A stretch of 27,873 nucleotides of DNA from a virus (lineage: Duplodnaviria; Caudoviricetes), in IMG/VR virus record IMGVR_UViG_3300025251_000061, positions 1-27,873 of that record. One strand, written 5' to 3'. Positions 9,467 to 27,872 of this stretch are shown one piece after another. The stretch's first letter is position 1. Each line of letters begins with the position of its first letter. Position numbers and translations under genes: made by a program. Under the pieces are notes generated by a model. That model worked only from the letters and a program-made list of their open reading frames with translations. It searched no databases and was not told where the DNA came from.

Positions 9467-9849
9467 GCAGAGACGATGTCCTGTGGCTGGGGAAGCAGGG
9501 CAGTCAACTGCTGTCCTACATAGGCGCTAAGGCCCATCATCTGCGTCTTTGATAAATTAGGCTCAGTGCGTTCAATGCACTTATCCATCATGTATTTCCA
9601 ATACCCTGCAAGGTCAAGGTCTACACCGCCGCCAGCATCTATGCTAACGAACGATTTAACCGCCTCTTGCATTTGTAGGAAGGTCAAATCCTTGACCCAA
9701 ACTTTCATCACCATATTCTCATCTTCGGCGTCTACGCGAACCGTATGTTCACGAGCAGCCGGTGCAACCATCAAATTATTGATGTCGCTAACAATCGTAT
9801 AGTTCTCTTTCTGCGCTCTATTCTGTTCTGTCGTCTCCTGTTGACTCAC
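9457..9849 (-). CDS. Tail assembly chaperone (lambda gpG-like), 130 aa
   Basis: Size, position between tail tube and TMP, and a terminal slippery site. Confidence 0.8.
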   Translation of the reverse strand: MSQQETTEQNRAQKENYTIVSDINNLMVAPAAREHTVRVDAEDENMVMKVWVKDLTFLQMQEAVKSFVSIDAGGGVDLDLAGYWKYMMDKCIERTEPNLSKTQMMGLSAYVGQQLTALLPQPQDIVSAPL

Positions 9850-10186
9850 TTACTGTACCCTCCTCGGGTGGTTTTGCCGCGAGCGTGGGGCAATTTGCTT
9901 TCGTGTGACCGGGTTCTCGGCACACGCTGCATTTCCTCACGGGCATCGGCGTTTCCTCGTCAGCGGCCGCCTCTTCATCGGCGGGGGCTTCGGGGGAATC
10001 TGATACGGGCGTCTCTAACTCGGGCGCCTCGGGGAATGGATTGTTTGACGGCTTACCGACTTCGGGGTCAAAGGTCTCTTTGAGAGCGAGCGCTGCTGCT
10101 TCACGCTCGGCTAACATCGCGCGCACTTTCTTGACTTGCGCTCTACGCGCTTTACGGTCGCTTAGATTGAATAGGAATCTGCCCAT
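9818..10186 (-). CDS. Hypothetical protein with CCHC zinc knuckle, 122 aa
   Basis: Contains CSVCREPGHTKANC (CX2CX4HX4C), with a basic N-terminus and an acidic Pro/Glu linker. Confidence 0.75.
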   Translation of the reverse strand: MGRFLFNLSDRKARRAQVKKVRAMLAEREAAALALKETFDPEVGKPSNNPFPEAPELETPVSDSPEAPADEEAAADEETPMPVRKCSVCREPGHTKANCPTLAAKPPEEGTVSESTGDDRTE

Positions 10187-10187
10187 T

Positions 10188-10472
10188 TCATGACCTCCTA
10201 TAGTATGTATCTTCTGAGCCGGGATAATGTTCTTCCACTTCCGATTGAAGTTGCACGATTTGTGCTGCTATATCATCCAAACCAAGTTCTTCGGCGGCTG
10301 TTGTTGCGATACTCAAACCCTTATGTAATTCTTGTACTAACTGTTCATTGGGGTCGGGTCCTTGTCCCTCTTGACTACCCGATTGTTCGTACAATGCCTC
10401 ATCAGTAGTTCCACGGTATGTATCGGGTAATTCATACTTCAAAATGACCCATGCGTTGTCCATCGGATTCAT
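10188..10472 (-). CDS. Acidic hypothetical protein with AWxxLK leader (MNPMDNAWVILK), 94 aa
   Basis: Start moved from 10511 to the ATG at 10472. This ATG follows the stop of the upstream small ORF (TAA-A-ATG) and opens the shared leader. Confidence 0.75.
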   Translation of the reverse strand: MNPMDNAWVILKYELPDTYRGTTDEALYEQSGSQEGQGPDPNEQLVQELHKGLSIATTAAEELGLDDIAAQIVQLQSEVEEHYPGSEDTYYRRS

Positions 10473-10473
10473 T

Positions 10474-10620
10474 TTACTGATACCCCCCTTCGGGTGGGCA
10501 TCCACATTCATCAGTGCGTATTAAATTATGATGAGCGGCTGTGCAGCGCCGGCAAATTGGGGCTGGTGATGGTGGGTCGTAGTTTTTCAAAACGCCCCAT
10601 GCCGTATTCATCGGATTCAT
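10474..10620 (-). CDS. Unannotated 48-aa Cys/His-rich protein with AWxxLK leader
   Basis: Manual translation: MNPMNTAWGVLKNYDPPSPAPICRRCTAAHHNLIRTDECGCPPEGGYQ*. It has the RBS GGTGA-ATAAA-ATG and fills the gap between the tail tube stop and the next ATG. Confidence 0.8.
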   Translation of the reverse strand: MNPMNTAWGVLKNYDPPSPAPICRRCTAAHHNLIRTDECGCPPEGGYQ

Positions 10621-10629
10621 TTTATTCAC

Positions 10630-12612
10630 CTAACAATGCAATAGCGCGTCATGCGAGACCACTTTCACATGCTTCGGCTTGATTTTCAGTTCGCTCTTGA
10701 TGACTCCTTTGTCATCGGGGATTTGTAGAGGTGCTTCTGCTATAATATACTCGTCAATAATAACAACCATCTGCTCGCGAGCAGTTCCGGGGCCTGCCTT
10801 AGTCATTGTGAGCGTGATAGGATTACTGTCGTTACGCTCGCGATTAGTGCGGAACTCGTGCCATAGTAGCGGGTCATCAACGATGACTGTCATGCTCAAC
10901 TCGTACTCGTTCTTCCCTTCAACAATTAGCGCGGGGTTTCTGCTACCACCGAACGGTATTTGTTCTAAGGAATCGCCTGCTGTATTACGCGTCTCAGCAG
11001 CGGGCGAACCGCGCACTGTATAGTGTGTCACGGTATTATTATTCCCAGTGAGATTAAAATTAGTTACTTGAGCCATTGGTTGCCCAAACGCGGTAATACT
11101 ACCATTGTAAAACATGAACGGCTTTTCGGTGTTAGGCGCGATACCTGCCTCTTTGCGCTCTTGAATACCGTTGCCTATATTCTCAAACATTCGGTGCGCA
11201 GTGTATCTGTCACCTTTGTTTGAGTTTTCCAACCTACCTGTGTCAGTATAGCACATTAGCGCATCAAAATTGATACTTAGTTTTGCTTCTGCGTCAGCGT
11301 CAGCAGTTAGCGACCAGTCTTTGACTTTGCATCCTTTGTAGATACGCGTCAATTGTTTGCTGTCGTTCGCGGAACCGGGTACATTAGCGGCTGACTCTAT
11401 ACTATACGAGCCAACATCGCGTGAGCGCATTGAGGTCTCAACCGAAAACGATGGTATGTGCCAACCGGAGAATAATAGTCGTGAGACACGATTCTGAATG
11501 TTGCCGTATGTGGCAGCACCTGTCTCAAAGTGTGGGCTACCGTTCGCATTAGTAGCACTAAACTCCATTTTCATAATTTGACAACCTGCCGCATGGTCAA
11601 AGCAGAATGGGTCATCAACATAGATGCGGCGTTCTGTCCCGACTCGGGCGTCATACGCAATAACCCGCCGAATCTCGTTAGATTCGCTACGAGTAAAAGA
11701 GGTGTGGCTTGCGGGCCATAGAGTACCTGTTGCTTGCGCGGCATTACTTGATGGGATAGCGACAGGAGTAGCGTCACAAACTTGAATATAGTCACCCACT
11801 GCTGGCACACCAACTGACGGTGCGCCACTCAATTGAATATAATTATCACCCATATTAATAGCAAGAGCATTCCCTGCGCCTGCATGTGGCGTACCTGCTG
11901 TGATGACCACAGCGCCCGATATTGAAGCATCAACAGCATCAACTGTCGCTTCGTTACCAAGACAGTAGTAAAGCCAACGCGCGCTGTTCATCATAGTATC
12001 AAGAGTACCGCCTTCGTTAGACATTTTCTGTGGAACCTGTACGACAACATCGCGGCCGATACCGACTACATGTTGGCGCAAAACCTCAACTTTAGTTTCG
12101 GGCAGAGTGAGTGTAGCAGCAAGACCGACAAATTGGTCAGTAAGAACAGTCTCGTCACTTGCCGCCGCGCTTGCGTTATATCCACCCATCTCTGTATCAA
12201 TTGTTGGGCAACCCAGCGCGTCAATGATGATTGTGTCATGGTCGTTGGCCCCTCCACTTTGACTACCCGAAGCCCCCGCGAGCGCAGGTGTGACTGTGAT
12301 TGTCGCGCCCGAATTGGCGATGATTGTGAATAACCGGCCTGTCGTTGCGTAGTCGTCAGCATCATAATTCGCTTGGGTACTCTTGATGCGCAAGTTGCAT
12401 CCAACAAGTAGACCGGCTGGGTACTTCAAAACACCTACTCCTGAAAACATGTCAGCAGTGTGCGCGCCACCAAATGTGATGACCGAAGTGTCGCCTGTAG
12501 TGGCGTGTGTCCATGTTAAAGCGTTGGCGTGATGACTGTGCGTAAGCACGATTCCGCTTTCGTGACCGAAGGTTACTTCGGCCAAATCTCCTTTGTACAC
12601 TGTTGATGGCAT
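10630..12612 (-). CDS. Major tail tube protein with inserted domains, 660 aa
   Basis: Tube-like segments (YKGCKVKDWSLTADADAEAKLSINF; PFMFYNGSI...VTNFNLTGNNN; EGKNEYELSMTV) and position between terminator and chaperone. Confidence 0.75.
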   Translation of the reverse strand: MPSTVYKGDLAEVTFGHESGIVLTHSHHANALTWTHATTGDTSVITFGGAHTADMFSGVGVLKYPAGLLVGCNLRIKSTQANYDADDYATTGRLFTIIANSGATITVTPALAGASGSQSGGANDHDTIIIDALGCPTIDTEMGGYNASAAASDETVLTDQFVGLAATLTLPETKVEVLRQHVVGIGRDVVVQVPQKMSNEGGTLDTMMNSARWLYYCLGNEATVDAVDASISGAVVITAGTPHAGAGNALAINMGDNYIQLSGAPSVGVPAVGDYIQVCDATPVAIPSSNAAQATGTLWPASHTSFTRSESNEIRRVIAYDARVGTERRIYVDDPFCFDHAAGCQIMKMEFSATNANGSPHFETGAATYGNIQNRVSRLLFSGWHIPSFSVETSMRSRDVGSYSIESAANVPGSANDSKQLTRIYKGCKVKDWSLTADADAEAKLSINFDALMCYTDTGRLENSNKGDRYTAHRMFENIGNGIQERKEAGIAPNTEKPFMFYNGSITAFGQPMAQVTNFNLTGNNNTVTHYTVRGSPAAETRNTAGDSLEQIPFGGSRNPALIVEGKNEYELSMTVIVDDPLLWHEFRTNRERNDSNPITLTMTKAGPGTAREQMVVIIDEYIIAEAPLQIPDDKGVIKSELKIKPKHVKVVSHDALLHC

Positions 12613-12626
12613 GCCCCTTTCCCCGT

Positions 12627-13067
12627 CTACGCGATAAGTTCACTGAATATGACTATTTCTATTTGGAAGGTGTAGCGATGTAACTGTTTTGAGCGGTCTG
12701 AGAGGTCAGTTCGCGTCTTGTAAAGCAGCCTGTCAAAGTTGATTCCATCCCCTTTTCGCTTAGAATGCACGATTCTGCGAACTTCGTCTTCCATTTTACC
12801 GAGTCGCTCTCGTCCGCGGACCGTTCTCGCGTCAATTGTTACATTGATTCGCGTGTGCACGAAGTCGTAGAACACTTCGGGCTGCTCTTCGTTGTGCGCG
12901 GTCTCGTACAGGAACACGCCATCGTTGCGGTTTAGGTTGAACCTTTTACCGCGCCCTGCGTCTAAGGTAGTGATGTCGGTTATGACAGGCTTGACTTGGT
13001 CTGTGTTAGACCTGTTCCAGTTATCATCAAGGATGCTGCGGATTAGTTCAACGGATTCTGTCGCCAT
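12627..13067 (-). CDS. Tail terminator/completion-like protein, 146 aa
   Basis: Size and alpha/beta pattern (N-terminal helix, RINVTIDART, helix, HRYTFQIEIV). Lies directly upstream of the tube gene. Confidence 0.65.
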   Translation of the reverse strand: MATESVELIRSILDDNWNRSNTDQVKPVITDITTLDAGRGKRFNLNRNDGVFLYETAHNEEQPEVFYDFVHTRINVTIDARTVRGRERLGKMEDEVRRIVHSKRKGDGINFDRLLYKTRTDLSDRSKQLHRYTFQIEIVIFSELIA

Positions 13068-13070
13068 TAT

Positions 13071-13508
13071 TCATCCCCCCCGCTTCCTTTTTCTCCATTG
13101 TGACAGCCTCTCCTTCTTCTCTTGCCGCATTCTTTCTTTCTCTTGCCGCATTCTTTCTTTCTCTTCCCGCTTCTCTTCCCGCTTTCTTTTTGCTTCTTCC
13201 ACTCTTTCTTTGTGCTCACCCGAGTTCCCTCGCACCATCCCCGGGTCATAAGGTTCTGACTCAAAAACGGGTTTCGGCGGCGGCTTCGGCGTTGGTCTGC
13301 TTTGAAGGATGGGTCTAAGTCTATCCCATTCACTCATTATCTCTTCGCTGGGGTTCATATCGTCACCGATTGCGAATTGTTGTGTTAATTCTTCCTCTAT
13401 CTCCTTCATCCTTGCTCTCGCCTGTGCGTACTCTTCGTCCGAGTATTCATCTTCGTCACCAAACTCGTTTGCTTTCAGCACAGCCCAAGCCTTTTCTAAC
13501 GGATTCAT
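13071..13508 (-). CDS. Charged low-complexity protein with AWxxLK leader (MNPLEKAWAVLKA), 145 aa
   Basis: Start placed at ATG 13508, 4 nt after the upstream stop. Acidic N-half, Pro-rich hinge and an E/K/R-rich helical tail. Confidence 0.75.
   Translation of the reverse strand: MNPLEKAWAVLKANEFGDEDEYSDEEYAQARARMKEIEEELTQQFAIGDDMNPSEEIMSEWDRLRPILQSRPTPKPPPKPVFESEPYDPGMVRGNSGEHKERVEEAKRKREEKREEKERMRQEKERMRQEKKERLSQWRKRKRGG
13117..13182. repeat. In-frame tandem repeats (21 bp x2, then 12 bp x2)
   Basis: ttctcttgccgcattctttct twice (13117-13158), then ttctcttcccgc twice (13159-13182). They encode the KREEKREEKERMRQEKERMRQEK stretch. Confidence 0.85.
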
Positions 13509-13873
13509 ATTTTCACTCTCTCCTTTGATACCCGCGACTTCCGCCACCAAGTTGATACGCCCACTCTTCCGCCTTCGCGCTTATTTCATCAAGGTCTATT
13601 TTACTGGATAATGTTGGGTCCATAGTTGCTTCTATGTCACAAAACCATGCAAGATTTAACAACATTTTTATCAATTGGTTTTGCTGACTATTCGCTTCCT
13701 CAGTGCGTTGCATCATAGTATCGGGTGGTAAATCATATTCACCTGTTTCCCGGTTCTCAATAAAATTACCTACCTCCATCGGATGCACATTAAGGCTATT
13801 TCCCCGTTCATCTACAGGCCCGAAATAAGGGTTGTTTTTCAGCAAAACCCAAGCCTTTTCTAACGGATTCATA
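13484..13873 (-). repeat. 26-bp perfect direct repeat at two adjacent gene starts
   Basis: TATGAATCCGTTAGAAAAGGCTTGGG at 13509-13484 and 13873-13848. Similarity continues through TGCTGAAA after 2 mismatches. Confidence 0.9.
13513..13872 (-). CDS. Hypothetical protein with AWxxLK leader (MNPLEKAWVLLKN), 119 aa
   Basis: ATGA overlap with the upstream gene and the shared leader. The gene is more AT-rich than the adjacent adaptor gene. Confidence 0.8.
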   Translation of the reverse strand: MNPLEKAWVLLKNNPYFGPVDERGNSLNVHPMEVGNFIENRETGEYDLPPDTMMQRTEEANSQQNQLIKMLLNLAWFCDIEATMDPTLSSKIDLDEISAKAEEWAYQLGGGSRGYQRRE

Positions 13874-14117
13874 GATTTGACCTCAGTAGTTCTTCGCCTG
13901 TTTGGCTTGTAGTCTCCATTTGCCTGCGCGTAGTCTCCATGATAGGACCGAGTACCTCTTTGTCTGTAACTATCGCGAGTGTGTCGGAGTCTATAACATT
14001 CCCCTGTTCATCTACAGTGTAATCGGGTAACGCATTGACTTTCAGTATCTTGATACCGAGAGGCGTAACACCCGCTTCCGCGCGGCGCTGAGCCATAACC
14101 ATCTCCTTCACTCCCAC
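13869..14117 (-). CDS. Hypothetical protein, about 82 aa (start uncertain)
   Basis: Fills the gap after the adaptor, and its stop overlaps the next start. The start could instead be the ATG at 14102. Confidence 0.6.
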   Translation of the reverse strand: MGVKEMVMAQRRAEAGVTPLGIKILKVNALPDYTVDEQGNVIDSDTLAIVTDKEVLGPIMETTRRQMETTSQTGEELLRSNL

Positions 14118-15742
14118 GGTGTCATCATCTCCACATAGCGCGGTAGCGTCTCAGCAATCTGCTGTTTGAGTAATTGGTACTTTGAACCGAGGTCTATGTT
14201 CTGCGTTCCCTCGGGGAACAACACGCTTCGGTCGTCCGAAATCAGTAAATCCATAGCGACATATTTGGTGCAAATGTCTTCAATCGCTTTCTCAACATAC
14301 CGCTCTCCGTAAATGTAGGACACCTTTATCGCGTTCCACTGGAAATAGGGGTAAGTGTTATTGAAATAAATAATACCCAATTCGTAATCGCACCACCAAT
14401 CGCGCAGACGAGCCTCGTCCCCGGTGGTGGTTCCGACATAATCAATTAGGAACTTGTGCTGATTGACAGCAATTGCTGCTCCCGACATCGCGGCAGTGAA
14501 GCCAGCAGGTGCGAGGTCTGTCACGCCCGTAAGAGTATTACCGGTTTTACCGGTATAGTATGCCGCGACCATAGCCGTACCTGTACCTGTATAGACGATA
14601 CCATAGTTAGCGAACTCGCTCGCATCAGTAAGAGCGAGTGAGCCGCCGCCGATAGCACCGGTCGTAGTTGTAGGGAGGCTTGTCAGCCCAGTAATTGCTA
14701 CGCCTGTCTCATTTGTAGTAGCGATAGTAGCGTTCTCACCACCATCACCGCGCCTCATGGAGGTAATTTTCATTTTACCGCCACCGTAGTCGGCGTTAGC
14801 GGACGAAAAGAACTCATGATGCACATTGGCTGTTTCTAAGCCGCCTGCTGCGTGGTTTGATTCAAGGGTGAATGAAGGGGAAAATGCGACACCCGCTTTG
14901 TTTCTGCGGTTATCTTTGTTAATCAAATCAGATAGATTGCTCGCGGTTGATTCGTTGTCAAAATCCGCCCGCCAATTGCCTGTGCCTGTACCCACTTGTA
15001 GTGATGCGACACCACCGTCACCGGGGCATAGATAGAGATAGTCAGTCGCGTCAATCACGCTATTATCAAGAATCTCAACATGCGCTTCTGCCGCTGCTAT
15101 CTCTCGGTATTCTTGGCCCTGCCAAATCTCAAGTCTCACGATTTGCTGAACATTACGGAACAGCAAGGGGGTTGTACCGACATAATCGGTGTAGTACCTA
15201 CGCCTGTATGGTTTGTAAGTGTCAAAGTTCTTGTATTCAGCCGTCTGTAACATAGGACGCCACGCGTTATTCGTAAGGTTGTCAATCTTGTCTTGCGCCC
15301 TGCGGATGAGATGCTGTACAGCCGACTTTGTTATACCGCGCCGTTTGCCGTTAGTGAATGATTGTAAGTTTTGCGCGGTTGCATTATTGGCTATAGTGTG
15401 TGATGCTGTGAGACTGTACGCTCCGCCACCCACTGCTGTTTGCTGTAGAGCCAAACGCGCTTCGCCACCAACGAGAGTGATACCGCTAATGTAAGCGGTC
15501 TCGGCGAGAGTAGCGTCACTAAGCACCTCAATTTGGTCACCCACTTCGTATCCTGTCTGTCGCAGGTCAATGGGGCTGATTTCAATATAGGCGTTACCGG
15601 CTGTCGCGTTGACCGAGAGGTCATCGGGGTCGGGGAATTGGATTTGTAGTAGGTCGGCTACCTTTTGCGGGGTAGTGTAGATGGTAGCATCGGGGTCAAG
15701 GGGTTGAGGGGGTCGCTCACCGGGCTGAAATATAACTGGCAT
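14108..15742 (-). CDS. Head-tail adaptor (HK97 gp6/SPP1 gp15-like) with large insertions, 544 aa
   Basis: Adaptor-like segments YTTPQKVADLL, VQHLIRRAQDKIDNLT and VSYIYGERYVEKAIEDICTKYVAMDLL. RBS GAGGTGA. Confidence 0.75.
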   Translation of the reverse strand: MPVIFQPGERPPQPLDPDATIYTTPQKVADLLQIQFPDPDDLSVNATAGNAYIEISPIDLRQTGYEVGDQIEVLSDATLAETAYISGITLVGGEARLALQQTAVGGGAYSLTASHTIANNATAQNLQSFTNGKRRGITKSAVQHLIRRAQDKIDNLTNNAWRPMLQTAEYKNFDTYKPYRRRYYTDYVGTTPLLFRNVQQIVRLEIWQGQEYREIAAAEAHVEILDNSVIDATDYLYLCPGDGGVASLQVGTGTGNWRADFDNESTASNLSDLINKDNRRNKAGVAFSPSFTLESNHAAGGLETANVHHEFFSSANADYGGGKMKITSMRRGDGGENATIATTNETGVAITGLTSLPTTTTGAIGGGSLALTDASEFANYGIVYTGTGTAMVAAYYTGKTGNTLTGVTDLAPAGFTAAMSGAAIAVNQHKFLIDYVGTTTGDEARLRDWWCDYELGIIYFNNTYPYFQWNAIKVSYIYGERYVEKAIEDICTKYVAMDLLISDDRSVLFPEGTQNIDLGSKYQLLKQQIAETLPRYVEMMTPWE

Positions 15743-15744
15743 TA

Positions 15745-16851
15745 TTATTCACCTCTCCGTGGTGGCCCTCTCCGTGGTTGTGTTCTAACACCACCGCGCC
15801 TACCACTGCGGGTAGGTCTCGCTCTTGTAGATTGGGTAATAGGCGGTTTATTTTGACCTTCTTCCCATTCCTTGCTTCGCAGTGCTTGTCGCACCTCCTC
15901 AAGTTCTTCCATAAAATCGGGGTCTGCTTCCTGTTCTTCGTCTGACATACTGTCATATTGTTGTGCCAATGGTCTATACACATCTTTGAGTTCATCGGTA
16001 GTCATATTAGCGTAGGTATTCGGTTCACTCCTTTCTGCGCCTTCTGTGAAATAATTTTCCGCTTCTTCACCCAATTGTCTTGCCATTTCATTCAACTGTG
16101 ATTTTTCTTCTTGGGCCTGCTGTTCTTTTTCTTCGGCTGGCCTTAGATGTTCTCCTAATTCGTCCGCGGCAGTGCCCCCGCTACCGGTAATTTCTCTCCA
16201 TGCTGACTCAAGGCTGGGTTCCGGCTCTTCTTCTTCTTCGTACCCGTGCGGTACTTCGGGCCTATTTAGGTCTCTAAATGTTCTTGGGGGTCGCAGTTTT
16301 TCCGTGAAACGCTGGCCGTAGTCGCCGCGCCTGTTTATGCGTGTTAAAGTAGTAGTATCGTCTCGCATCTCCGGTTCTAATTCGTGTGGGTCGGGCATTT
16401 CAGCGCCTTCGCCAGCGAGTGCTTCATCGCGTTCAAATAGTTCTAATTCCGGCCTCTTGTCTTTTTTACCGGGTGGCCTGCCGTAGGCACCGGATGCTCC
16501 ACCTTCATAGACAGGGTCCATCGCGTCCTTTGTTTCGTCAAACAATCTTTGCCATTCTTCACCCTCCAAAAACCCGCTGTCGCTCTGCGCATGCGCATCA
16601 CGCCATTTTTGTTCCGCATCATGAAAGTCATCCGCTATCTTATTTTGCTCGTCTATATCACTACTGAACTCCGGCGGCATCGTGCCTTCCAAGCCTTCTA
16701 TCCCACCGGTACGCGCTGCTTGACCCCTATGGCGCTTACGCGCAGGGTGCGTAAGAGGTAGGTGACTCGTAGGGAATCGTTCTTTCTCACCCTCTTCGGG
16801 TGGGTCCGGCCACGCTTTCAATAATTGCCAAGCAGCGTCTATCGGGTTCAC
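15745..16851 (-). CDS. Highly acidic, probably disordered protein with AWxxLK leader (MNPIDAAWQLLKA), 368 aa
   Basis: GTGA overlap with the upstream gene. Glu/Asp/Pro-rich body and Arg/Gly-rich C-terminus. Confidence 0.8.
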   Translation of the reverse strand: MNPIDAAWQLLKAWPDPPEEGEKERFPTSHLPLTHPARKRHRGQAARTGGIEGLEGTMPPEFSSDIDEQNKIADDFHDAEQKWRDAHAQSDSGFLEGEEWQRLFDETKDAMDPVYEGGASGAYGRPPGKKDKRPELELFERDEALAGEGAEMPDPHELEPEMRDDTTTLTRINRRGDYGQRFTEKLRPPRTFRDLNRPEVPHGYEEEEEPEPSLESAWREITGSGGTAADELGEHLRPAEEKEQQAQEEKSQLNEMARQLGEEAENYFTEGAERSEPNTYANMTTDELKDVYRPLAQQYDSMSDEEQEADPDFMEELEEVRQALRSKEWEEGQNKPPITQSTRARPTRSGRRGGVRTQPRRGPPRRGE

Positions 16852-17231
16852 TGACTCTCCTCCGGTGGTAATCCGTGAGCCGTTCGCATTTGATTAAGCA
16901 TAGCGGTATGACATTCTTCACAGATATTATCACCGTGCCATTCGTCTACGGCGGGATTCACACGACATAAATCGCATACAGGGCCTTCCATCCGACTCTG
17001 CTGTCTTTGTCGCTCTTGTTCTTGTTGTAAATTACGCCACATAGAAGCCTGCTCATCGGCTCTACTCTTGTCTTCTTCATTACCCCTATACGCTTGCTTA
17101 AGGAATACCCACGCTTTCTCTAACGGGAAAGAACGATTGAGCGCTTCACGATGCACAGCGCAAAACTTCTCGTTCTGAGCGCACGCTGAATTACAACCCG
17201 ATACTGTGCAGGTTTCCCACCCTTCGTTCAT
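16848..17231 (-). CDS. Two-zinc-finger protein with internal PLEKAWVFLK motif, 127 aa
   Basis: CTVSGC...FCAVH and CDLC...CEEC motifs flank the AWxxLK peptide (aa 36-45) and a Gln/Glu/Arg-rich helix. Confidence 0.75.
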   Translation of the reverse strand: MNEGWETCTVSGCNSACAQNEKFCAVHREALNRSFPLEKAWVFLKQAYRGNEEDKSRADEQASMWRNLQQEQERQRQQSRMEGPVCDLCRVNPAVDEWHGDNICEECHTAMLNQMRTAHGLPPEESQ

Positions 17232-19150: not shown

Positions 19151-20284
19151 TCATGTAAGGTCACGAATACTCCCTTGTGCTCCAAAGAAAGAACACCACA
19201 TTTCGCCCATCGTTCTATACAATCCTTCCTGTCCGAGGCGGTTGATAGCGAACGGGTCGCCAGTTTCAATTCCGCTCTCAAAGTACTGAGTCGGTATCGC
19301 TGTTTGGAACCATAGGTAGTCTGTATCAAGATAATAGATACGACTACTACCGTCTGCTGTAACATCTTTGCTTGGGATGATTGGCACACCGTTGTAGGTA
19401 GCCACGATGAATCCGGCTTCTATACCGGGTACACCTTTCACACCGCTGTATGATGGAGTAACTCTCTTTGTTTCCATGAATCGCTGTTGGGTCTGTAATA
19501 ACTGCTGGATATTCATTAGTGTATCATAGCCAGTTAGGATAACCTTTGGATTACCACCACGAGTCCATACTTGCTGGAAGATGGTGTCAAGGAAATCAAG
19601 ACTTAGCGCGCGGTTGGTGCTTGTTGCATCAACGCTAACTTCTGCACTGTGGAAATCTGCGGTACCGTTACGAGTAATTGAATACATATCGTGGTCGGTA
19701 AGAGCGCTTACATGCACACCGGCAGTCATATTGTCCGGGTCTGATGTAATTCGGTCAAGTGATTCAAAGTCGTTTGCTGCTGGTGTATCAACATCAGTTG
19801 TTAGCATTCGGTTGATATGGTCTGCGTGATGCTTACCCATCTCTTCCTTCAATACTTGTCGGACATCGCCCATTCCGTCATCCTTGTCGGATAGGAACAT
19901 AGCAACCTCTGATAGGTCAAAGGTGTGCGCGACAGTCTTCGGCTTTGCAGCCACATGTAGGAAATCGGGTTTGGTAGTCTCCGGTAGGGTTGCGTTTTCA
20001 GCAACACCGCCGCCCTTAGTGAAGGACGCCTTAGAGGTAATGATTCTCCAACCACTCTTTTCCCACGGTTTCTTAGGTAGAATACTAAACGCATTGAACT
20101 CTTGGTTCAACTGAGACCAAACCTTTCGGCCGTAAATTGCTTGGTAAGAACCAGCAGTAGTACTCATTAGCGGTGCATCCGCTTTGAGTATATCCCCGCT
20201 ACTGTATGTATATCCAGTTAGCGCTGTTCCACCGTAGTAATACCGTTCCATGTCTTGAATTGTGCGTACATAATCTCTTGCCAT
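19151..20284 (-). CDS. Major capsid protein (HK97 fold), 377 aa
   Basis: Follows the protease and has a perfect RBS. HK97-like segments include GVAENATLPET, KPKTVAHTFDLSE, FESLDRI and ATYNGVPIIPS. Confidence 0.9.
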   Translation of the reverse strand: MARDYVRTIQDMERYYYGGTALTGYTYSSGDILKADAPLMSTTAGSYQAIYGRKVWSQLNQEFNAFSILPKKPWEKSGWRIITSKASFTKGGGVAENATLPETTKPDFLHVAAKPKTVAHTFDLSEVAMFLSDKDDGMGDVRQVLKEEMGKHHADHINRMLTTDVDTPAANDFESLDRITSDPDNMTAGVHVSALTDHDMYSITRNGTADFHSAEVSVDATSTNRALSLDFLDTIFQQVWTRGGNPKVILTGYDTLMNIQQLLQTQQRFMETKRVTPSYSGVKGVPGIEAGFIVATYNGVPIIPSKDVTADGSSRIYYLDTDYLWFQTAIPTQYFESGIETGDPFAINRLGQEGLYRTMGEMWCSFFGAQGSIRDLT

Positions 20285-20286
20285 AC

Positions 20287-21693
20287 TTATTCACCTCCTC
20301 GTAGTGCGCCAGCAGCGAGTCTGTGGACATCATCCCAACTCATATCTGCAAGTGCGTCACTTGAAGGAACTTCAACAAGAGCGCGGGATGCACTCTTAGT
20401 AATTGTCTCACCGGCTTCGCCGCTGGACAGGTTGTTAATACGCTCATTTAGCGCGATAACTGCTTTTTGTATGTCTTCTAATGGCTTACGAGAGTCAAAT
20501 GACTGTCGTGCTTCCTCATTAGATTTCTGAGTCATCTCGGAAGTGTAGCGTTCATCAAACGCGCCACCGAGTTCTCCTTTGAACTCTTGTTCCGCGCGTG
20601 CTGCCTTGTAGACTGCATAAGCCTCTTCAAGTTGCGCGCCGCTGACATTCTCCTTGATTACGAACTTGCTACCAGTAGGTGCTGGGTCTGCGCTTGCGCG
20701 GATTGCGAACTTGTTGCCGCTTCCACCGCTACCGAAATCCATCTTTGGACGCTTTTTGGAATCTTCCTCACCTGCGCCTTCAAGAGAACCTTGTCCGCGA
20801 TGGTCAAAGCCGGATTCTCCGGGGCCGTAGCCCTTTTCAAACTGACTTCGCGCCTTGTTAGTGTCATAGCCAGCGCCTTTCACGGTGCTCTCTAACCACT
20901 GCAAGTACTCGGTGCTGATAACATCATCAAATCCTTTTTCAACTTCTTCATCAGAATAAGCCATCTTTTCTTTGTCATCCCCCCCATCATCGCTGTCTTT
21001 CTTTTCGTCTTTCTTTTCGTCTTTCTTCTTGTCGTCTTTGCTGTCCTTCTTGTCGCCGAACGGGAACCCACCCTTGTCGTCTCCATCAGACTCAGCATCG
21101 TCAAGTTTCTTTGACAATCGTTCCAATACATCATGTAACTGTGTTACTACTTCTGTTTCTGTCATTTTTTCATCGTCCTGTTTTAGTATTCTGAATTGTG
21201 CTTCCGGGTTTATTCCTTTCTCGCATATTGTTACTTCATGCAACTCCATGCGCCGGATTTCCCGGTAACTGCCTCGCTCCTTGCTGCTTTTGCTGACTCG
21301 CTCAAATGCTTGTCCGCCGATACTGAAAGACTTAAGATTGCCTTTTCGCACCTCGGATGCAACTTCGCGAGCCTTTTCAATGTCATTCCGTAGTCTAATG
21401 ACAACGAACATGCCGCTGTCGTCAACTTCGGATTTCCATAAGCGCCCGGAGGAATCTGTGTATTCGGGGACAACTTCCCCGACTTGTATATTGGAGTGCG
21501 CGAGTTGTACATTTCTGCATTGTGCGTTATCCATGAACTTGTGGAACGCTTCATTAAGCGCGCCTGTGGTAATGAGGTCTCCTTGTTTATCAACGAGTTC
21601 AACGCTTGCGTATCCGGCGACAATGAGGTCATCTCCAATCCCCTTAATGAGGAGGGGTGATGATTGGCTTGATAGGACTGCACTCGCGACCAC
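20287..21693 (-). CDS. Prohead maturation protease (HK97 gp4-like) fused to C-terminal scaffold, 468 aa
   Basis: IVAGYASVELVDKQGDLI, AHSN (His), KSFSIGG (Ser) and LHEVTICEKGINPEA motifs, followed by a charged coiled-coil-like region. RBS GGGGTGA. Confidence 0.9.
   Translation of the reverse strand: MVASAVLSSQSSPLLIKGIGDDLIVAGYASVELVDKQGDLITTGALNEAFHKFMDNAQCRNVQLAHSNIQVGEVVPEYTDSSGRLWKSEVDDSGMFVVIRLRNDIEKAREVASEVRKGNLKSFSIGGQAFERVSKSSKERGSYREIRRMELHEVTICEKGINPEAQFRILKQDDEKMTETEVVTQLHDVLERLSKKLDDAESDGDDKGGFPFGDKKDSKDDKKKDEKKDEKKDSDDGGDDKEKMAYSDEEVEKGFDDVISTEYLQWLESTVKGAGYDTNKARSQFEKGYGPGESGFDHRGQGSLEGAGEEDSKKRPKMDFGSGGSGNKFAIRASADPAPTGSKFVIKENVSGAQLEEAYAVYKAARAEQEFKGELGGAFDERYTSEMTQKSNEEARQSFDSRKPLEDIQKAVIALNERINNLSSGEAGETITKSASRALVEVPSSDALADMSWDDVHRLAAGALRGGE
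20291..20298 (-). promoter_or_regulatory. Shine-Dalgarno site GGAGGTGA of the capsid gene
   Basis: GAGGAGGTGA-ATAAGT-ATG. Similar GGTGA motifs precede most genes in the operon. Confidence 0.8.
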
Positions 21694-21721: not shown

Positions 21722-24700
21722 TTAATCCGCGCGCAACTCTAACACTGCCTCTTCATCGGTGATACTAAGCCTCGCTTTTTCACCTTCTTCTGTTGTAATA
21801 CTGCTGTTTTTCTTTGATTTGCTACCGGATTCGGGGGTTTTCTCCTTCTCGCGTCCATCGGGATAGAAGTCGGGAAGCGTCTCGGGGCGCGTTAATTCGG
21901 TCGGACCGCGTGGCGCAGCATCTTCTGTGCCAAGACCGACTGCGAGACCCTTCGGTCCTGTCCAAGTCATCTTCTCTTTCGCGAGTAATTCTTCTAAAAC
22001 GAGTAGCGCCTTGACGATGACGGGGTCTTTCAGTAACTGATTCGGCATAATTTTCTTCGGTTTTTTGTCTTCCGGCCGCGGGTCGGGTGTAACCTCCGCT
22101 TTCTTCTTACGCTTTTTGTCGTGCATGTATTCACGCGGGTCATAATCTATCTTAGCCACACCTTTCAGCATCAACGCGGCGAGTGGTTCCCAACATGGGC
22201 GTAGTGTTTCTGCTACGCGTACGGGGTAATCGCCCTGTAATGACTCTCCTTTACCTATTCTCCACACATCAAGTAACACACCTGTCTCATTTTCCAGTCG
22301 GCGGGCTTTGTAAATCACATCATCATCAATAGTGGGTAGCGATACTATGACTTTGACACCCTCAACAGCCACGCTATGCGGTATGTGAGGGATTCCCGAC
22401 TTAGTGAGCATACCGAGAGTGGCTATACTATCAGTCGCTTTAGATTCAGCCGCTCCTTGTAATTTTGCGCCGTGCAAAGCATACACCGATTCGCCGCCGC
22501 GCTCCCTACGGGAGACGCTACCAACGCTCACAGTAGCGAAGTCACCTTCGTCAAACGAACCATCACCGCTCGCTGTTCCAATATCCATGTACTGCTTACC
22601 ATCAACTTTAGCCGCGCGATTACCGAGTTTTTCAGCAATTTCGTCACTAACCGGCCCTATCCCGAGCCTATACACAGGGTTGTTTTGCCCCCGCTGTCCG
22701 AGAATAATCACACTGACGCGCTTCTCATCATCAAGTAGTACCCATTTCGGATGACGCGCTTCGCCCTCCATGTAAGTTGATTCGGAGTCGCGGAGCATGA
22801 TACGCCCGCCTTCTATTTCCTTCACCGATTCAGCGAGACCTTCGTCATCCGTCTGCCGCGTGTTAATCGGCTGTGGTGTTTTCACCTTCTCATTAGCCTC
22901 AAAACTACCACGGAGCGCACGCATTCGGTGTTTTAGCATCTCTTCGGTGACATCTTCTGTAGCGACTCGTAACAAGTCAACGATATGCAAAACCTTACCG
23001 TCATAGATTGCATCTACCACGAAGTTCTTTTCGTTAATCTCTTTCACTGATTCTTCTAACTCATCAGAAATTGTCGCCCCTGTGACTTTGACATCGTCAT
23101 CATCGCGCTCAATTATCACTCGCTGGCCTTCGGGCCACGAGTTCACTATCCATTCCCCACTGAACCCGCGCAGGTCTTCTAAGTCTGAGAGGTCAAAAAT
23201 GCGGTGAGCGGCTTTTATCGGTGAGGCGTCTCCCTTTTCTCTCTCCTCGTCTTCCTCTTTAAGAATATCAAGGAAAGTCAGACGCTCAAGCGGCTCACCG
23301 CGCCGGAATCTTTCGTTTATCTTAGTAGGTTTGGTGTTTCTTCTGCCTAAGTGCGACAACTGTGGTTTTGTATCGGCGGTATCAATGTCAAAGTAATCCC
23401 CCATTTCCGCCATTTTGTTTGCAGCGAAATCCATAGGCATAATCCCTTCGTTAATAATTCGCATGAGAGAGATGGGTGGTAAAGCCAAATCCGATATTTT
23501 AGGTTGGCTAACATTTTCCAAAAAGACAGGCTCACCAGTTCTCTTATCGTAATCAACAGTGAACGGAGGTTTGGTTGGATAACCATGATGTCTTTTTATG
23601 GCGGGCGATGTGTATAAAGGCATAATAGTCTGTGTCCCAGCGTTCATTCGCCCCAACGGTTGTGGTCTAAATACTGTGTCATTTTCGCTCCCACCTTCGC
23701 TTTTATTCTGGAGAGGTTGCCCGAGGTACCGTGATAATTTACCAATTATATCATCGGCTTTCCCTTGTGACTTTCTTCGCGCGCTTTTGCCACCAGCGGA
23801 ACCCTTCGCGCCTTTTGTGCCGGCTTCCCAGTTAGTATTTTTAGTCAATTCATGTCTGAACTTTTTGTACATTCTGTCCATTAACTCTGCTTCGGTGCTT
23901 GCCGGCCATTTGTAAGGTGTTGCTTTGCCGTGAATACTACCACTCTGTTTAGCGAATCGGTCAGACAACGATTGAGCAATCTCTTCGGGGTGATTTTTCA
24001 GCATAGTGTTTATAGAAGAATCGTCAAGGTCGTCCATAAAACTCGTGACCCAATTGTGTCGTCTCTTTCGGTCCTTTTCACCGGCTTTCCCTACAACAGC
24101 ACCCGCGGGGTTCTTTGATTTCCATTCCGGGTGTTGCGTGGCTTTGACTCTCGCGATAGCGTGTTTGATAATATCGCGCATGTGCTCTTCGTCAGTTGTA
24201 GGTCCTGTCGGCTCTGCCCCTGCTACTGGTGGTAGAGCAGCGTCCTCGTTGAAAACTCTACTATACGGGTCAAGCCATTCATGGAATAGATGCAACATAC
24301 TCGGGTTACCTTTCTGCTTAAAATCTTGGATTCTGTCATGTAAGGCTTCGTCATTAGGCTTCACCCCTTCATTGGCTATTGATAAAGGCAGGTCATGGTG
24401 ACTCATGATATTTCCATTCTCATCACCAATACCGAGTTTTTTATTCATCTCGGGTGTTTGGTGATTAGCGACATAGCGCTCAGCCGCTTCCACAAGAGCC
24501 ATTATCGCGGGTGTAGCGGCATTCCAATCTTCTTCTCCTTGATTATCTGTAGTACTATCAAATAGACCTCCCCCTAAGTGTTTCTCTGCAAGTTCTTTGA
24601 ACACTGGTAATACCGCTTCAATAGCCGCGTGCGTATTATTACAATCTTCTGCTATTTGCGCTACTCTCCTTCGGTGTGGAGATTGAGAAGACTTATTATC

Positions 24701-27700
24701 AGCCGTCTCTAAGGGGACGAGGGGCGTGTGTCTATCCCTCAAATCATTCACGATTTGTCGTTGACGCTCAATGGCATTATTCAAACCATCTATATTTCGT
24801 TTGGGGCCTTTCTCTTTTTTCGCTTTATCCGCGGTTTCAATAGCCGCCGGTAATCCCTCTAAAAGGTCAAGGAAGTATTCTGCCATATCAACAGGGTGCT
24901 CTCGTGACATAAAGGCCCTGTTCCCGTTCTGTAAAGGGAATGAAAAGTTTGAGCCGTCCACCGCGTCAGCATTAGGCTTCTGTCCCGGCCCCCCTGTCAA
25001 ACTATGGATATTCACTTTTGCCGCGCTGGGGTCATCTGAAAGGATATTATGCGTGTTCGCTAATTGCTCAGCGGACATGTGCTGAGGCACACTTTGGGGG
25101 ACATTAGGACCAAAGTCTCCGTGTTCTAACAAATACTGTGACGCCTCTTCTCTATCCAAATTAATACGCGGCTCTCCTTCATGGTCGTCTGCTATGAACG
25201 CGTCCGGGTTAAAAATCGGCATCTCTTCTTTACCCGAAGTGTCAATCATACCACCAGCGACATTATCATAATGCGATAAAAGGGAACTTAGGGAATGTTG
25301 GTCATAATCTCCCTTTGGTTCAACCGAGTAAAACGAATACCCACCCCCTAAATCATCATCTTCGGGAGACAATAACTTATCACTCAAATCTCCATACCGT
25401 GTTTTGTCTCCCGCTTCACGCGAAAAACCCATTTCTCTCATCCATCTACCAATCTGTTCTTCGTTCTGCTCACCGGTAGGGTGGTCTTTATCCACACCCG
25501 GCAGCCAACCATTATCCCAATACCCATGCGTAGTTATCAGTTTATCTAATCCGTCTGTTGGTATCATGTGGGTTGATTCACCTTCCGAACCTAATGGCCG
25601 GTCGTGTCTATCAGCCGGCCGAGCAAGCCCACAAAGGGCCGCTATCAAATCTGTGGTTTGTGGCATCACGAATTGAGATTTCATAGATGTAGGATTACCA
25701 TGATAAGTGGGGAGTTTTTTCCCTTTTTTGGCGACAAATCCCGGGGTGAGGGTATTCATATTTGGTGAGCGCCATTTTACATTACTCGGGTTCAAATGAG
25801 ACTGTGTAGCACTTCTATTAAACTCACCTGTGCGCGCATATCCGAACATAGATTGCATCTCGTCATGGGGCACAATAGGTTTATCGTACGCCCCCTCGGG
25901 ACCTCCCGCTTGCGCGAAACGCTCAATTTCTTTCGGCCAAGCCAACATAGCCTCTTGTCGTGTCAAACCTTCTTCGCTCTTTGTATCAAACCACTGCTCG
26001 TTCGGTTCCATTAACATTTTATCAACCGGGCCTGTAAATACACCGGGGTACATTTGGTGGACACCGTGCAAATACGCATTCTCGTCCAACCCCATACCTC
26101 CACCATCCATATCAAACATGTGAGAGAATGACGGAGTACCGTCAGCGTTTAGACCACCTATTGCTGGAGCACCGACCTGTCTTATCGCGGCGCCACCAAC
26201 TAAATCTTGCTGGTGTTTTTCCGCTACCCCTTCGTTAAACAATTGGTCTCTAACACTCTCGTCTAACCAACCGTTCTCTACATATTGGTCTATGACTTGA
26301 GGAGTAAGGTGGCTTTCTTCCTCTTGACCCTTTTGGCCGCCCCATATCGCCATACCTTCATCACTAATCTCACCAGTAGGTAAATTGAGACCACTAAGCA
26401 TGTGCTCGTACTCATCCATAAGATTTTCTTCACCTAACGCGTTGCGCATAATATGATGTCTCGCGCTCATTGAGCCTTCTTCTTCGTCCCCATAATGTGA
26501 AAATACTCCATCGTGCTCAGTGACATGCAACCTGTCAAGCGCGTTCCCGATAGCCTCGCTACCGGCCCCTTCCCCAACATCGCGTAATTTCACTTCATTA
26601 TTATCAGCCCAATTAACTATCGCGCCCGGTATGTAAGGAAACGCTCGTGTTTTTTGGTGTACTCGTGGACCTCTTACCATACCTTTCTGTCGTTTTAGGA
26701 AAGGTAGCCAATGCTCCCATCCATGAAAATCAAGATTATCAAAATCTTCTCTCGCTTCCTCATTATGAGGAGCGCCGTTCAATAACCAGCGCATGACATG
26801 GAGTCTTTCTTGTGGCTCCAACATCTCTAAGCCGTAGAGGTGAGACATAAAACCGAGTCGCGCGTTAGGGTTCCTCACACCTTCCTCCGACATTTTTTCT
26901 GCCAATCCGCTTTCGTTATGTCTACCTGTCTCCTCATCAAGCAACTTGTCGGGATTATACCCTTCCCACTCAAGCAATTTGTGAGCCATAAACATCTGCC
27001 GGTACTCATCATCACCATCTTCGGGTTTTTCCCAGCCGTTTTCGTCCGCGTTATTCTGCCAGCGGTCTAACCACTTATTGAATCCGCGCTCATACAACGA
27101 AGAGAGCGATACTTGGCCTGTATGTTTTCCAAAATTACTATCGCTATTATGCGGATAATCAGCGTATTTTGATTCATGAGCATCAAGCCCTTCATCAAAC
27201 TCTCGTGCGCCGGAACCATCACGATACAAATAACGGTATGTCTGATGAACGGGAGCGGACGGGAGCAACGAGTGCTTGTTCTCAAACAGGCCAATATCCA
27301 TCATAGGGTGCCTGTCGGGTCGGACAGCGTCAGACCCCGGTGCTCTACGCATATCTCCTTCTGTTGCGGGAGCGGTCTCCATTCTCCCCGATGCCATTTT
27401 CCAAAGCATTATGGTTTGTTTATGCACCTTCTCTTTTCTCACCGCTTCTGAATCACCTTCGTCAATTTGCGCGTCTTCCCATTCCCCTGCTGATATGATT
27501 TCTTTGAGGTCACTATGGGGTTCACGCGGTAATGTACCTTGATTGGCAGGGGGGTGGGCTACCATTTTAGGTGAATAATCATATAATTCACGAACAGGTT
27601 TTATGCCACCTAAATCAGTCTGTTTTAGTATCCCTCTCGCGGATTTTACCAACAAAAGGTCATTAGTATCAATCGGTACATTTCTCCTGTAAGCGTCAAG

Positions 27701-27805
27701 CGCTGCGAACATAAAATCGGCAGCGTCATCGGCATCGGCATCGGGTAAGCATTTGAAGAACTCGTAACGAGAGCGCGCCCAAAATCGTTCTGCCGACTCT
27801 CTCAT
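21722..27805 (-). CDS. Giant acidic protein (about 2027 aa) with C-terminal degenerate ATP-dependent DNA ligase-like NTase and OB domains
   Basis: The likely start is ATG 27805 (MRESAERF), after a purine-rich RBS and the upstream stop. Ligase-like motifs appear in order at about 23220-22400: WIVNSWPEGQR, FVVDAI, LHIVDLL, RIMLRDSESTYMEGEARHPKWVLL, then VSVIILG...YRLGIGP...IGT. Confidence 0.8.
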   Translation of the reverse strand: MRESAERFWARSRYEFFKCLPDADADDAADFMFAALDAYRRNVPIDTNDLLLVKSARGILKQTDLGGIKPVRELYDYSPKMVAHPPANQGTLPREPHSDLKEIISAGEWEDAQIDEGDSEAVRKEKVHKQTIMLWKMASGRMETAPATEGDMRRAPGSDAVRPDRHPMMDIGLFENKHSLLPSAPVHQTYRYLYRDGSGAREFDEGLDAHESKYADYPHNSDSNFGKHTGQVSLSSLYERGFNKWLDRWQNNADENGWEKPEDGDDEYRQMFMAHKLLEWEGYNPDKLLDEETGRHNESGLAEKMSEEGVRNPNARLGFMSHLYGLEMLEPQERLHVMRWLLNGAPHNEEAREDFDNLDFHGWEHWLPFLKRQKGMVRGPRVHQKTRAFPYIPGAIVNWADNNEVKLRDVGEGAGSEAIGNALDRLHVTEHDGVFSHYGDEEEGSMSARHHIMRNALGEENLMDEYEHMLSGLNLPTGEISDEGMAIWGGQKGQEEESHLTPQVIDQYVENGWLDESVRDQLFNEGVAEKHQQDLVGGAAIRQVGAPAIGGLNADGTPSFSHMFDMDGGGMGLDENAYLHGVHQMYPGVFTGPVDKMLMEPNEQWFDTKSEEGLTRQEAMLAWPKEIERFAQAGGPEGAYDKPIVPHDEMQSMFGYARTGEFNRSATQSHLNPSNVKWRSPNMNTLTPGFVAKKGKKLPTYHGNPTSMKSQFVMPQTTDLIAALCGLARPADRHDRPLGSEGESTHMIPTDGLDKLITTHGYWDNGWLPGVDKDHPTGEQNEEQIGRWMREMGFSREAGDKTRYGDLSDKLLSPEDDDLGGGYSFYSVEPKGDYDQHSLSSLLSHYDNVAGGMIDTSGKEEMPIFNPDAFIADDHEGEPRINLDREEASQYLLEHGDFGPNVPQSVPQHMSAEQLANTHNILSDDPSAAKVNIHSLTGGPGQKPNADAVDGSNFSFPLQNGNRAFMSREHPVDMAEYFLDLLEGLPAAIETADKAKKEKGPKRNIDGLNNAIERQRQIVNDLRDRHTPLVPLETADNKSSQSPHRRRVAQIAEDCNNTHAAIEAVLPVFKELAEKHLGGGLFDSTTDNQGEEDWNAATPAIMALVEAAERYVANHQTPEMNKKLGIGDENGNIMSHHDLPLSIANEGVKPNDEALHDRIQDFKQKGNPSMLHLFHEWLDPYSRVFNEDAALPPVAGAEPTGPTTDEEHMRDIIKHAIARVKATQHPEWKSKNPAGAVVGKAGEKDRKRRHNWVTSFMDDLDDSSINTMLKNHPEEIAQSLSDRFAKQSGSIHGKATPYKWPASTEAELMDRMYKKFRHELTKNTNWEAGTKGAKGSAGGKSARRKSQGKADDIIGKLSRYLGQPLQNKSEGGSENDTVFRPQPLGRMNAGTQTIMPLYTSPAIKRHHGYPTKPPFTVDYDKRTGEPVFLENVSQPKISDLALPPISLMRIINEGIMPMDFAANKMAEMGDYFDIDTADTKPQLSHLGRRNTKPTKINERFRRGEPLERLTFLDILKEEDEEREKGDASPIKAAHRIFDLSDLEDLRGFSGEWIVNSWPEGQRVIIERDDDDVKVTGATISDELEESVKEINEKNFVVDAIYDGKVLHIVDLLRVATEDVTEEMLKHRMRALRGSFEANEKVKTPQPINTRQTDDEGLAESVKEIEGGRIMLRDSESTYMEGEARHPKWVLLDDEKRVSVIILGQRGQNNPVYRLGIGPVSDEIAEKLGNRAAKVDGKQYMDIGTASGDGSFDEGDFATVSVGSVSRRERGGESVYALHGAKLQGAAESKATDSIATLGMLTKSGIPHIPHSVAVEGVKVIVSLPTIDDDVIYKARRLENETGVLLDVWRIGKGESLQGDYPVRVAETLRPCWEPLAALMLKGVAKIDYDPREYMHDKKRKKKAEVTPDPRPEDKKPKKIMPNQLLKDPVIVKALLVLEELLAKEKMTWTGPKGLAVGLGTEDAAPRGPTELTRPETLPDFYPDGREKEKTPESGSKSKKNSSITTEEGEKARLSITDEEAVLELRAD

Positions 27806-27821
27806 TCCTCTCCCCCCGCTA

Positions 27822-27872
27822 TCATAGGCGGCGGGCGAGGGATTCAGCCTTTTCGGCAAGTTCGCTCAATAG
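27822..27872 (-). CDS. 3' end of upstream gene (partial)
   Basis: The frame reads LLSELAEKAESLARRL* and stops 16 nt before the giant gene ATG. Confidence 0.55.
   Translation of the reverse strand, partial: LLSELAEKAESLARRL

Follow-up and report, generated by a model that had tools for sequence, protein, structure and literature searches.

In phage T4, the internal proteins IPI-III and Alt carry a capsid-targeting sequence (CTS) that is removed by the prohead protease gp21 (PMC9026906, PMC3012670). The S78 proteases of phages HK97 and T5 are reported to cut after Lys (PMC13517437), and ADP-ribosyltransferase (ART) and GNAT domains are among the effector domains delivered by virions (PMC5512222). 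Here, we describe a comparable arrangement in the viral record IMGVR_UViG_3300025251_000061, analyzed over its positions 1 to 27,873 (the whole stretch of 27,873 nucleotides, called the window below). Six late genes in the window share a 12-residue peptide with the consensus M-N-P-hydrophobic-x-x-A-W-x-hydrophobic-L-K, which we call the tag; the part of each protein behind its Lys is called the cargo. Judged from the sequences, the tag would be a capsid-loading and cleavage tag, similar to the T4 CTS, on swappable head cargo, and we put the probability of this reading at roughly 60%.

A six-frame scan of the window finds AWxxLK exactly six times, always on the minus strand and in frame within late-module genes, and never on the plus strand. 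Five copies are N-terminal and one is internal:

10188..10472, minus strand: tagged gene of 94 aa counted from the tag Met, acidic cargo; tag at 10437-10472, MNPMDNAWVILK
10474..10620, minus strand: tagged gene of 48 aa, cargo with four Cys, directly after the tail tube stop; tag at 10585-10620, MNPMNTAWGVLK
13071..13508, minus strand: tagged gene of 145 aa, N-half acidic and C-half basic coiled; tag at 13473-13508, MNPLEKAWAVLK
13513..13872, minus strand: tagged gene of 119 aa, acidic cargo; tag at 13837-13872, MNPLEKAWVLLK
15745..16851, minus strand: tagged gene of 368 aa with a GTG start, acidic low-complexity cargo; tag at 16816-16851, MNPIDAAWQLLK
16848..17231, minus strand: tagged gene of 127 aa, CxxC cargo; internal tag at 17097-17132, SFPLEKAWVFLK, behind a 35-residue Cys-rich leader

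Six tags in 9,221 aa (24 genes) is far more than chance predicts: among 5,000 residue shuffles the maximum was three (reached in 1 of 5,000), and 4,477 shuffles gave none. The initial annotation had reported these six copies, and all were recovered in place, with the correction that the copy at 16851 begins with GTG; its description of three tandem pairs set between core structural genes (three slots) was also borne out. The five N-terminal starts are preceded by ribosome sites of the GGAG/GGTG/GAGG/GGGG type and abut or overlap the upstream stop. The claim that the cargoes share no similarity holds in general by BLAST, apart from a weak similarity over 23 residues that links the two cargoes containing Cys (E 0.006). 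Neighboring copies are alike as DNA too, the first 25 bases being identical in the two at 13.5-13.9 kb. Contigs of runs X11, X13 and X14, none of them flagged as a possible source, align with portions of the tagged genes almost or entirely without differences, and the tagged genes are therefore not an assembly artefact. No joint that skips a cassette was seen in contigs of four runs, and one X13 contig matches the tag alone (10585-10620) between foreign flanks.

How widely is the tag distributed among relatives? The comparison covered 228 loci in all, including 80 fetched with the capsid protein alone and 118 stretches of a viral collection found by DNA pattern. The initial annotation had expected such a scan of related archaeal virus contigs to yield many N-terminal copies on variable genes, and 234 unique copies were indeed found, 170 of them with the Ala codon exactly six codons behind a start codon (a figure inflated by the search pattern). 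The 226 cargoes of at least 25 aa make up 115 families, of which 81 have a single member, so that the downstream parts are not one homologous family. In the 80 capsid-fetched loci, the capsid strand has 84 copies of AWxx[LIVM]K, a few of these being out-of-frame chance matches, and the opposite strand has four. Conversely, when the tag pattern alone was used to find longer records, 38 of the 43 obtained carry the same capsid protein, and 212 of the 218 tags in these 38 (summed from the tally) lie on the capsid strand; of the other five records, four are fragments and the fifth, 258 kb long, has just one match. A reversed control pattern gave one match in the 43 records, and the strict tag pattern gave none in a collection of 185,579 cellular genomes. 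In the complete genome G001, the ten pattern matches are all confined to the late strand and to the interval from 2.6 to 61.1 kb, with none in the replication half; tags reach 10-12 per genome. Tagged genes are present in 24 of 28 late modules (picked from the 80 loci for their long flanks, the window included), where the window's three slots and one additional slot each hold zero to three of them. These 28 modules also hold 93 untagged frames that received no assignment in these stretches, many of which resemble diverged core genes.

The window encodes an S78-type head protease, upstream of the capsid gene, and its relevant features are as follows:

20287..21693, minus strand: prohead protease fused to scaffold (Pfam Peptidase_S78, 40.6 bits against a cut-off of 21)
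21640-21660, 21178-21213, 20602-20634 and 20389-20409, minus strand: conserved hydrophobic-x-Lys sites of the protease-scaffold
20602-20634, minus strand: tag-like helix QLEEAYAVYKA in the protease-scaffold
20314-20343, minus strand: conserved C-terminal helix of the protease-scaffold
19151..20284, minus strand: major capsid protein, with a predicted propeptide cut site ILK/AD at 20177-20197 (Lys34)

Conserved hydrophobic-x-Lys-small sites occupy 9 of 443 columns in the protease-scaffold, and 0-0.4% in the tail tube, tape measure, chaperone, terminator and neck proteins; they are also dense in the small proteins behind the portal and also rare in the portal and the giant protein. At the capsid site, Leu-Lys is invariant in 46 close relatives, and of 116 distant capsid proteins, 84 retain Lys34, with Ala next in 61; the capsid protein of halovirus HVTV-1 keeps the K/AD site. 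The end of the tag resembles this conserved ILK/AD propeptide site. After the tag Lys, Ala occurs 46 times against 12.3 expected and Pro never against 12.6 expected, a bias that could equally reflect helix capping or shared descent. S78-type proteases act inside the prohead, and therefore a tag that serves as a cut site would imply loading.

Copies away from the N-terminus bear on the same question. An internal variant, G-E-P-M-D-L-A-[WFM]-R-L-L-K, accounts for 28 unique copies within proteins, all in frame and without a start codon, and three of the 28 are near the C-terminus. In polyproteins (three copies of the variant in a frame of 577 aa, three in a frame of 949 residues), the tags separate repeated domains. 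Such internal and repeated tags fit a site with two roles, docking and being cleaved. The initial annotation had described an N-terminal leader, which matches the position of five of the six window copies but does not cover the internal, near-C-terminal and repeated ones. An extra Lys stands upstream of 15 of the 28 internal tags, against 5 of 28 in a control window, and was not counted as support because the internal copies share descent. In G001, a 436-aa protein encoded upstream of the terminase (L231:13821-15131, minus strand) has several hydrophobic-Lys sites near its start and, at its very end, a longer tag variant, H-A-W-D-Y-L-L-K.

If the tag docks inside the prohead, which core protein receives it? 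The highest-ranking tag-like site among the core proteins is the scaffold helix QLEEAYAVYKA (compare PLEKAWAVLKA in the tag), which comes first of 5,708 aligned sites and first of 8,110 window 11-mers, with 57 distinct matching segments among 70 scaffold sequences. Its score is nevertheless not significant genome-wide, being equaled in 55 of 300 column-permuted profiles and in 484 of 1,000 shuffles of all core proteins. A score as high arises within the scaffold alone in 15 of 1,000 shuffles (range 1.5-4% of trials), and anywhere in the core proteins in 18-48% of trials. The scan with the tag profile thus gave no significant receptor among the core proteins, and the scaffold helix is no more than a lead. 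The scaffold C-terminal helix SWDDVHRLA was considered as a tag mimic and rejected, since it falls outside the 14 best sites of the tag profile. In many relatives (for example L017, L049 and L072) the portal C-terminus has a tag-like helix without the Lys, T-P-[ILM]-E-Q-A-L, which alone is not significant.

Perhaps the tag is a docking helix for some other destination, such as a late host factor, the chaperonin that the virus encodes, or the surface of the tail or outer capsid, and its Lys binds and is not cut. The lack of a receptor in the core-protein scans would be expected in that case, as would the position of tagged genes among neck and tail genes and past the tail module, not beside the portal; G001 does encode a thermosome, and the few near-C-terminal copies also suit a binding helix. 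It is harder to see why a docking helix of this kind would end like the capsid propeptide site, with Pro excluded and Ala favored after the Lys, or why it would divide repeated polyprotein domains, and GNAT- and ART-like cargoes suit delivery more than decoration. We consider another destination unlikely, though it deserves to be kept in mind.

The cargoes of the wider set are soluble, with a median length of 125 aa, some being just 8-36 residues, and without a membrane segment in any of 163; they are mostly acidic, as most core proteins are. One cargo family of relatives is a GNAT by its features and predicted structure (atlas 0.95, TM 0.6-0.7). A second is an ART-fold lead, with a model pLDDT of 73; its atlas neighbors are PARP, Tox-ART-HYD1 and Arr, and the fold matches listed belong to the ART superfamily (KptA/Tpt1, Arr, toxin and PARP domains). 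A third family presumably has a ParB-like motif, which we read by eye, and an HD domain also occurs among the cargoes of relatives. Sub-threshold Pfam matches among the representative cargoes include GNAT, ART-PolyVal and SLOG; others below the cut-off, TcdB_toxin_midN and PCB_OB among them, were treated as noise. Homologue searches with a GNAT and an ART-like cargo yielded close relatives of these proteins alone, and all 16 full-length ones examined carry the tag or a near variant. The family of the 368-aa window cargo has seven members among the fetched loci, and this cargo itself has no match in the phage collection. A second tag-rich cluster lies beyond the tail genes, with arrays of four to six tagged genes (L096, L118, L123, L127). 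This cluster holds most of the enzyme-like cargoes (ART-, GNAT- and ParB-like), and its ART-like cargoes have another short peptide in common behind the tag.

It is also conceivable that the tag does load the prohead while the cargo consists mostly of passengers or scaffold-core filler, degraded or inert, with the tagged genes spreading by way of an insertion site. Most cargoes are acidic, of low complexity and domainless, a few are very short, and T4 IPII and IPIII have no known effector role (PMC9026906), all of which would be in keeping with filler. The GNAT, ART-fold, ParB-like and HD cargoes of relatives look intact, however, and the fast turnover of cargo in each slot suggests host-driven selection, so that we regard inert filler as rather improbable. 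Of the interchangeable effectors proposed by the initial annotation, the part that stands is that unrelated late genes are swapped; effector status is not visible in the window's own six, which lack a recognizable enzyme domain.

The tag is conserved as a peptide. Among 162 representatives, synonymous positions are nearly free: all six Leu codons are used, the Pro third base carries 1.99 bits, Asn is AAT 47 times and AAC 40 times, and Phe is TTC 39 times and TTT 33 times. Since synonymous codons vary freely, selection acts on the peptide. The Ala codon GCC is never used in the tag, which fits the avoidance of CCWGG (absent from the window). Hydrophobic residues recur in the tag with a periodicity that peaks at 110 degrees, and the predicted model of one tagged cargo has a helix at residues 3-13. 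Differing synonymous codons had already been taken as a sign of peptide-level selection, and the larger sample confirms this and rules out conservation as DNA alone, yet the tag DNA has a second property: it marks the point where cargo cassettes are exchanged. Among pairs with the same upstream flank, identity is lost within -3 to +6 bases of the end of the Lys codon in 116 of 193, and among pairs with the same cargo and different flanks it begins at the tag in 37 of 45; these pairs are not independent, and the ungapped comparison scores some diverged homologues as different, but genuine transfers from slot to slot are still evident where pairs with the same cargo are 75-100% identical. In 23 of 37 slot groups, two or more cargo starts occur. 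DUF6321 is a clear example of a domain onto which the tag has been bolted: this cargo begins directly behind its tag, and the same domain is present untagged in phages CRP-4 (gp31) and S-CBS2 (gp046), in the latter case just downstream of the phage's capsid gene. There, gp045 and gp046 of cyanophage S-CBS2 (L250:2534-3282) are two small, basic, untagged domains encoded by adjacent genes, and both occur as tagged cargoes in magroviruses, which points to exchange between bacterial and archaeal marine viruses. A shared start that is merely a relic of DNA cassette recombination, or a translation-start sequence, with no peptide function would explain the breakpoints at the Lys codon end, the joins at the tag and the DNA likeness of neighboring copies, but this highly improbable idea is already largely refuted by free synonymous variation in a strict frame, and it is also at odds with the 28 internal in-frame copies that lack a start codon and with the helical periodicity.

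How could one short element act as we propose for the loading and cleavage tag? The helix, through its hydrophobic residue 4, Ala7, Trp8, hydrophobic residue 10 and Leu11, would bind either the scaffold or the capsid protein on its inner face. The prohead protease would then cut after Lys12, freeing the N-terminally tagged cargoes and splitting the multi-tag polyproteins. Some cargoes would pass into the host together with the DNA and serve there in counter-defence or takeover, and others may be core or DNA-packing proteins. The 36-base tag would also be the crossover point by which cargoes are shuffled between slots and viruses. As regards the portable capsid-loading tag of the initial annotation, what stands is an amphipathic, peptide-selected tag with a head-protease-like end on interchangeable, unrelated late genes; loading together with cleavage keeps the probability given above.

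Several results weigh against loading and cleavage. Conservation of the tag is partly by construction, since the search patterns prescribed A, W and K, and M-N-P was in addition a criterion for choosing loci L081-L198. Four of the 28 late modules have no tagged gene in the slots compared, no core protein emerged as a significant receptor, and the residue bias after the Lys has the two other possible sources named with it. The enzyme assignments are sparse: Pfam and PHROGs gave no recognizable enzyme domain in the six window cargoes, and Pfam run on 149 of 163 representative cargoes gave three matches at the cut-off by one reading and two strictly (HD_4 and DUF6321, with YAcAr just under). The ART fold search returned no match at E 0.001 or better, and profile searches of the PDB with three cargo families found nothing significant. 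Cargo domains also exist untagged in other phages, and of 157 cargoes 59% have a pI below 5.5 and 14% one above 9, an acidic set compared with the basic internal proteins of T4.

A fuller version of the proposal can be formulated, in which a 36-base element with three jobs (capsid address, protease cut site and cassette crossover) has built in abundant marine archaeal viruses, independently of T4, a cargo-injection system with a plug-in library of more than 100 virion-delivered proteins, including protein-modifying enzymes and self-splitting polyproteins, and would be usable for loading HK97-type capsids; this is possible but tentative, and we would wager slightly against it in its entirety. 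No magrovirus is in culture, and the function of most magrovirus genes is unassigned. If the loading and cleavage reading is true, the tag would sort part of these genes as head cargo and give candidates for the proteins that meet the defences of the marine archaeal hosts, and it makes an exact prediction, namely that cleavage creates N-termini in virions just behind the Lys of the tag. It would also mean that tag-based cargo loading of the T4 type arose again in archaea with a different protease family.

As a whole, the window represents the late module of an archaeal tailed virus that resembles magroviruses, a single operon with a 2,045-aa protein, the S78 protease-scaffold fusion, the capsid protein, neck genes, tail tube, chaperone and tape measure. 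Its features beyond those given above are:

9818-10186, minus strand: 122-aa gene, C-terminus zinc-knuckle-like (sub-threshold Pfam), overlapping the start of the tail chaperone
10630..12612, minus strand: tail tube protein, core gene beside slot 3
12627..13067, minus strand: probable tail terminator (named from its position), conserved core gene beside slot 2
14108..15742, minus strand: probable neck or head-tail joining protein (named from its position), conserved core gene beside slot 1
21722-27859, minus strand: 2,045-aa protein, between the portal side and the protease

The position of the 122-aa gene is kept in relatives, and the G001 orthologue of the 2,045-aa protein has a weak DNA ligase match. 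The capsid protein is of the SU10 type by Pfam and PHROGs, and a PDB profile search with it gave nothing significant. Its closest cultured relatives are those of haloviruses HCTV-1, HCTV-5 and HVTV-1, at 34% identity, and its 11 matches in the phage collection include no reference magrovirus genome. The complete relative G001 encodes a thermosome and PolB, with the ligase-like gene within the structural module, and matching DNA occurs in marine sequencing runs. Together with the capsid kinship, these traits match the description of magroviruses in PMC5434244; we infer the group name from the capsid, portal, protease, ligase-like gene and the archaeal replication genes of the relative, and from the literature we infer a Poseidoniales host. 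GATC is absent from the window (188 expected) and from genomes G001, G002, G004 and G005 (L229-L247; 2,809 expected), and CCWGG occurs 0 times against 15 expected in the window and 86 times against 307 in the same four genomes, an avoidance that points to host restriction at these sites.

How does the arrangement compare with known systems? Like the magroviruses of Philosof 2017 (PMC5434244), this group combines a ligase-like gene in the structural module with a thermosome and PolB (in G001) and an origin in marine runs. Term searches of the accessible text of the magrovirus papers PMC5434244, PMC11706807 and PMC10160649, supplements and subscription papers aside, found no shared motif of this kind. 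Term searches likewise gave no match in the supplements of PMC9502166 and PMC12014285, the latter of which concerns other phages. For the halovirus HFTV1, the accessible text of PMC12494034 and of bioRxiv 10.64898/2026.09.13.751334 has a processed capsid protein and a nested scaffold and does not mention a tag. In HVTV-1, the ends and Lys motifs of eight head-region genes showed no AWxxLK tag. Between portal and protease, HVTV-1 genes 115 and 116 have in common a repeat of about 25 residues after a Lys, with a weaker copy in gene 113 (all three within L248:3080-11868); it is possibly a different loading motif in a cultured halovirus.

With HK97 gp4 and T5 pb11 (MEROPS S78), the window virus shares the protease family and Lys sites at the capsid propeptide and at the protease/scaffold borders, but the accessible part of PMC13517437 describes no polymorphic set of tagged cargo. 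PMC12991175 has no bearing on Lys specificity. The virion-packaged polyvalent proteins and MuF-fused effectors (PMC5512222) resemble the present cargoes in their polymorphic ART, GNAT and ParB-like domains; there, however, the carrier is a folded domain or one large protein, whereas here a 12-residue tag is found on many small genes. A close counterpart is the T4 CTS, also a short common peptide (a propeptide of 10-19 aa in T4, 12 residues here) on unrelated, non-conserved proteins, with similarly spaced residues (in T4, positions near 4 and 7 serve in targeting and the end is a protease site) and an ADP-ribosyltransferase among its cargo, to be compared with the ART-fold lead. In contrast to T4, the present case involves an archaeal virus with an HK97-type capsid, an S78 protease and a Lys site. 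T4 gp21 cuts after Glu. The T4-type head machinery (gp21, gp22 core, gp23 capsid) is absent, Pfam and PHROGs giving Peptidase_S78 and an SU10-type capsid in its place. Further differences are the more than 100 cargo families, the 10-12 tags that a genome can hold, the internal, C-terminal and repeated copies and the mostly acidic cargo. Considering that both the head machinery and the peptide differ, the tag is not a member of the CTS family, and would simply work like one.

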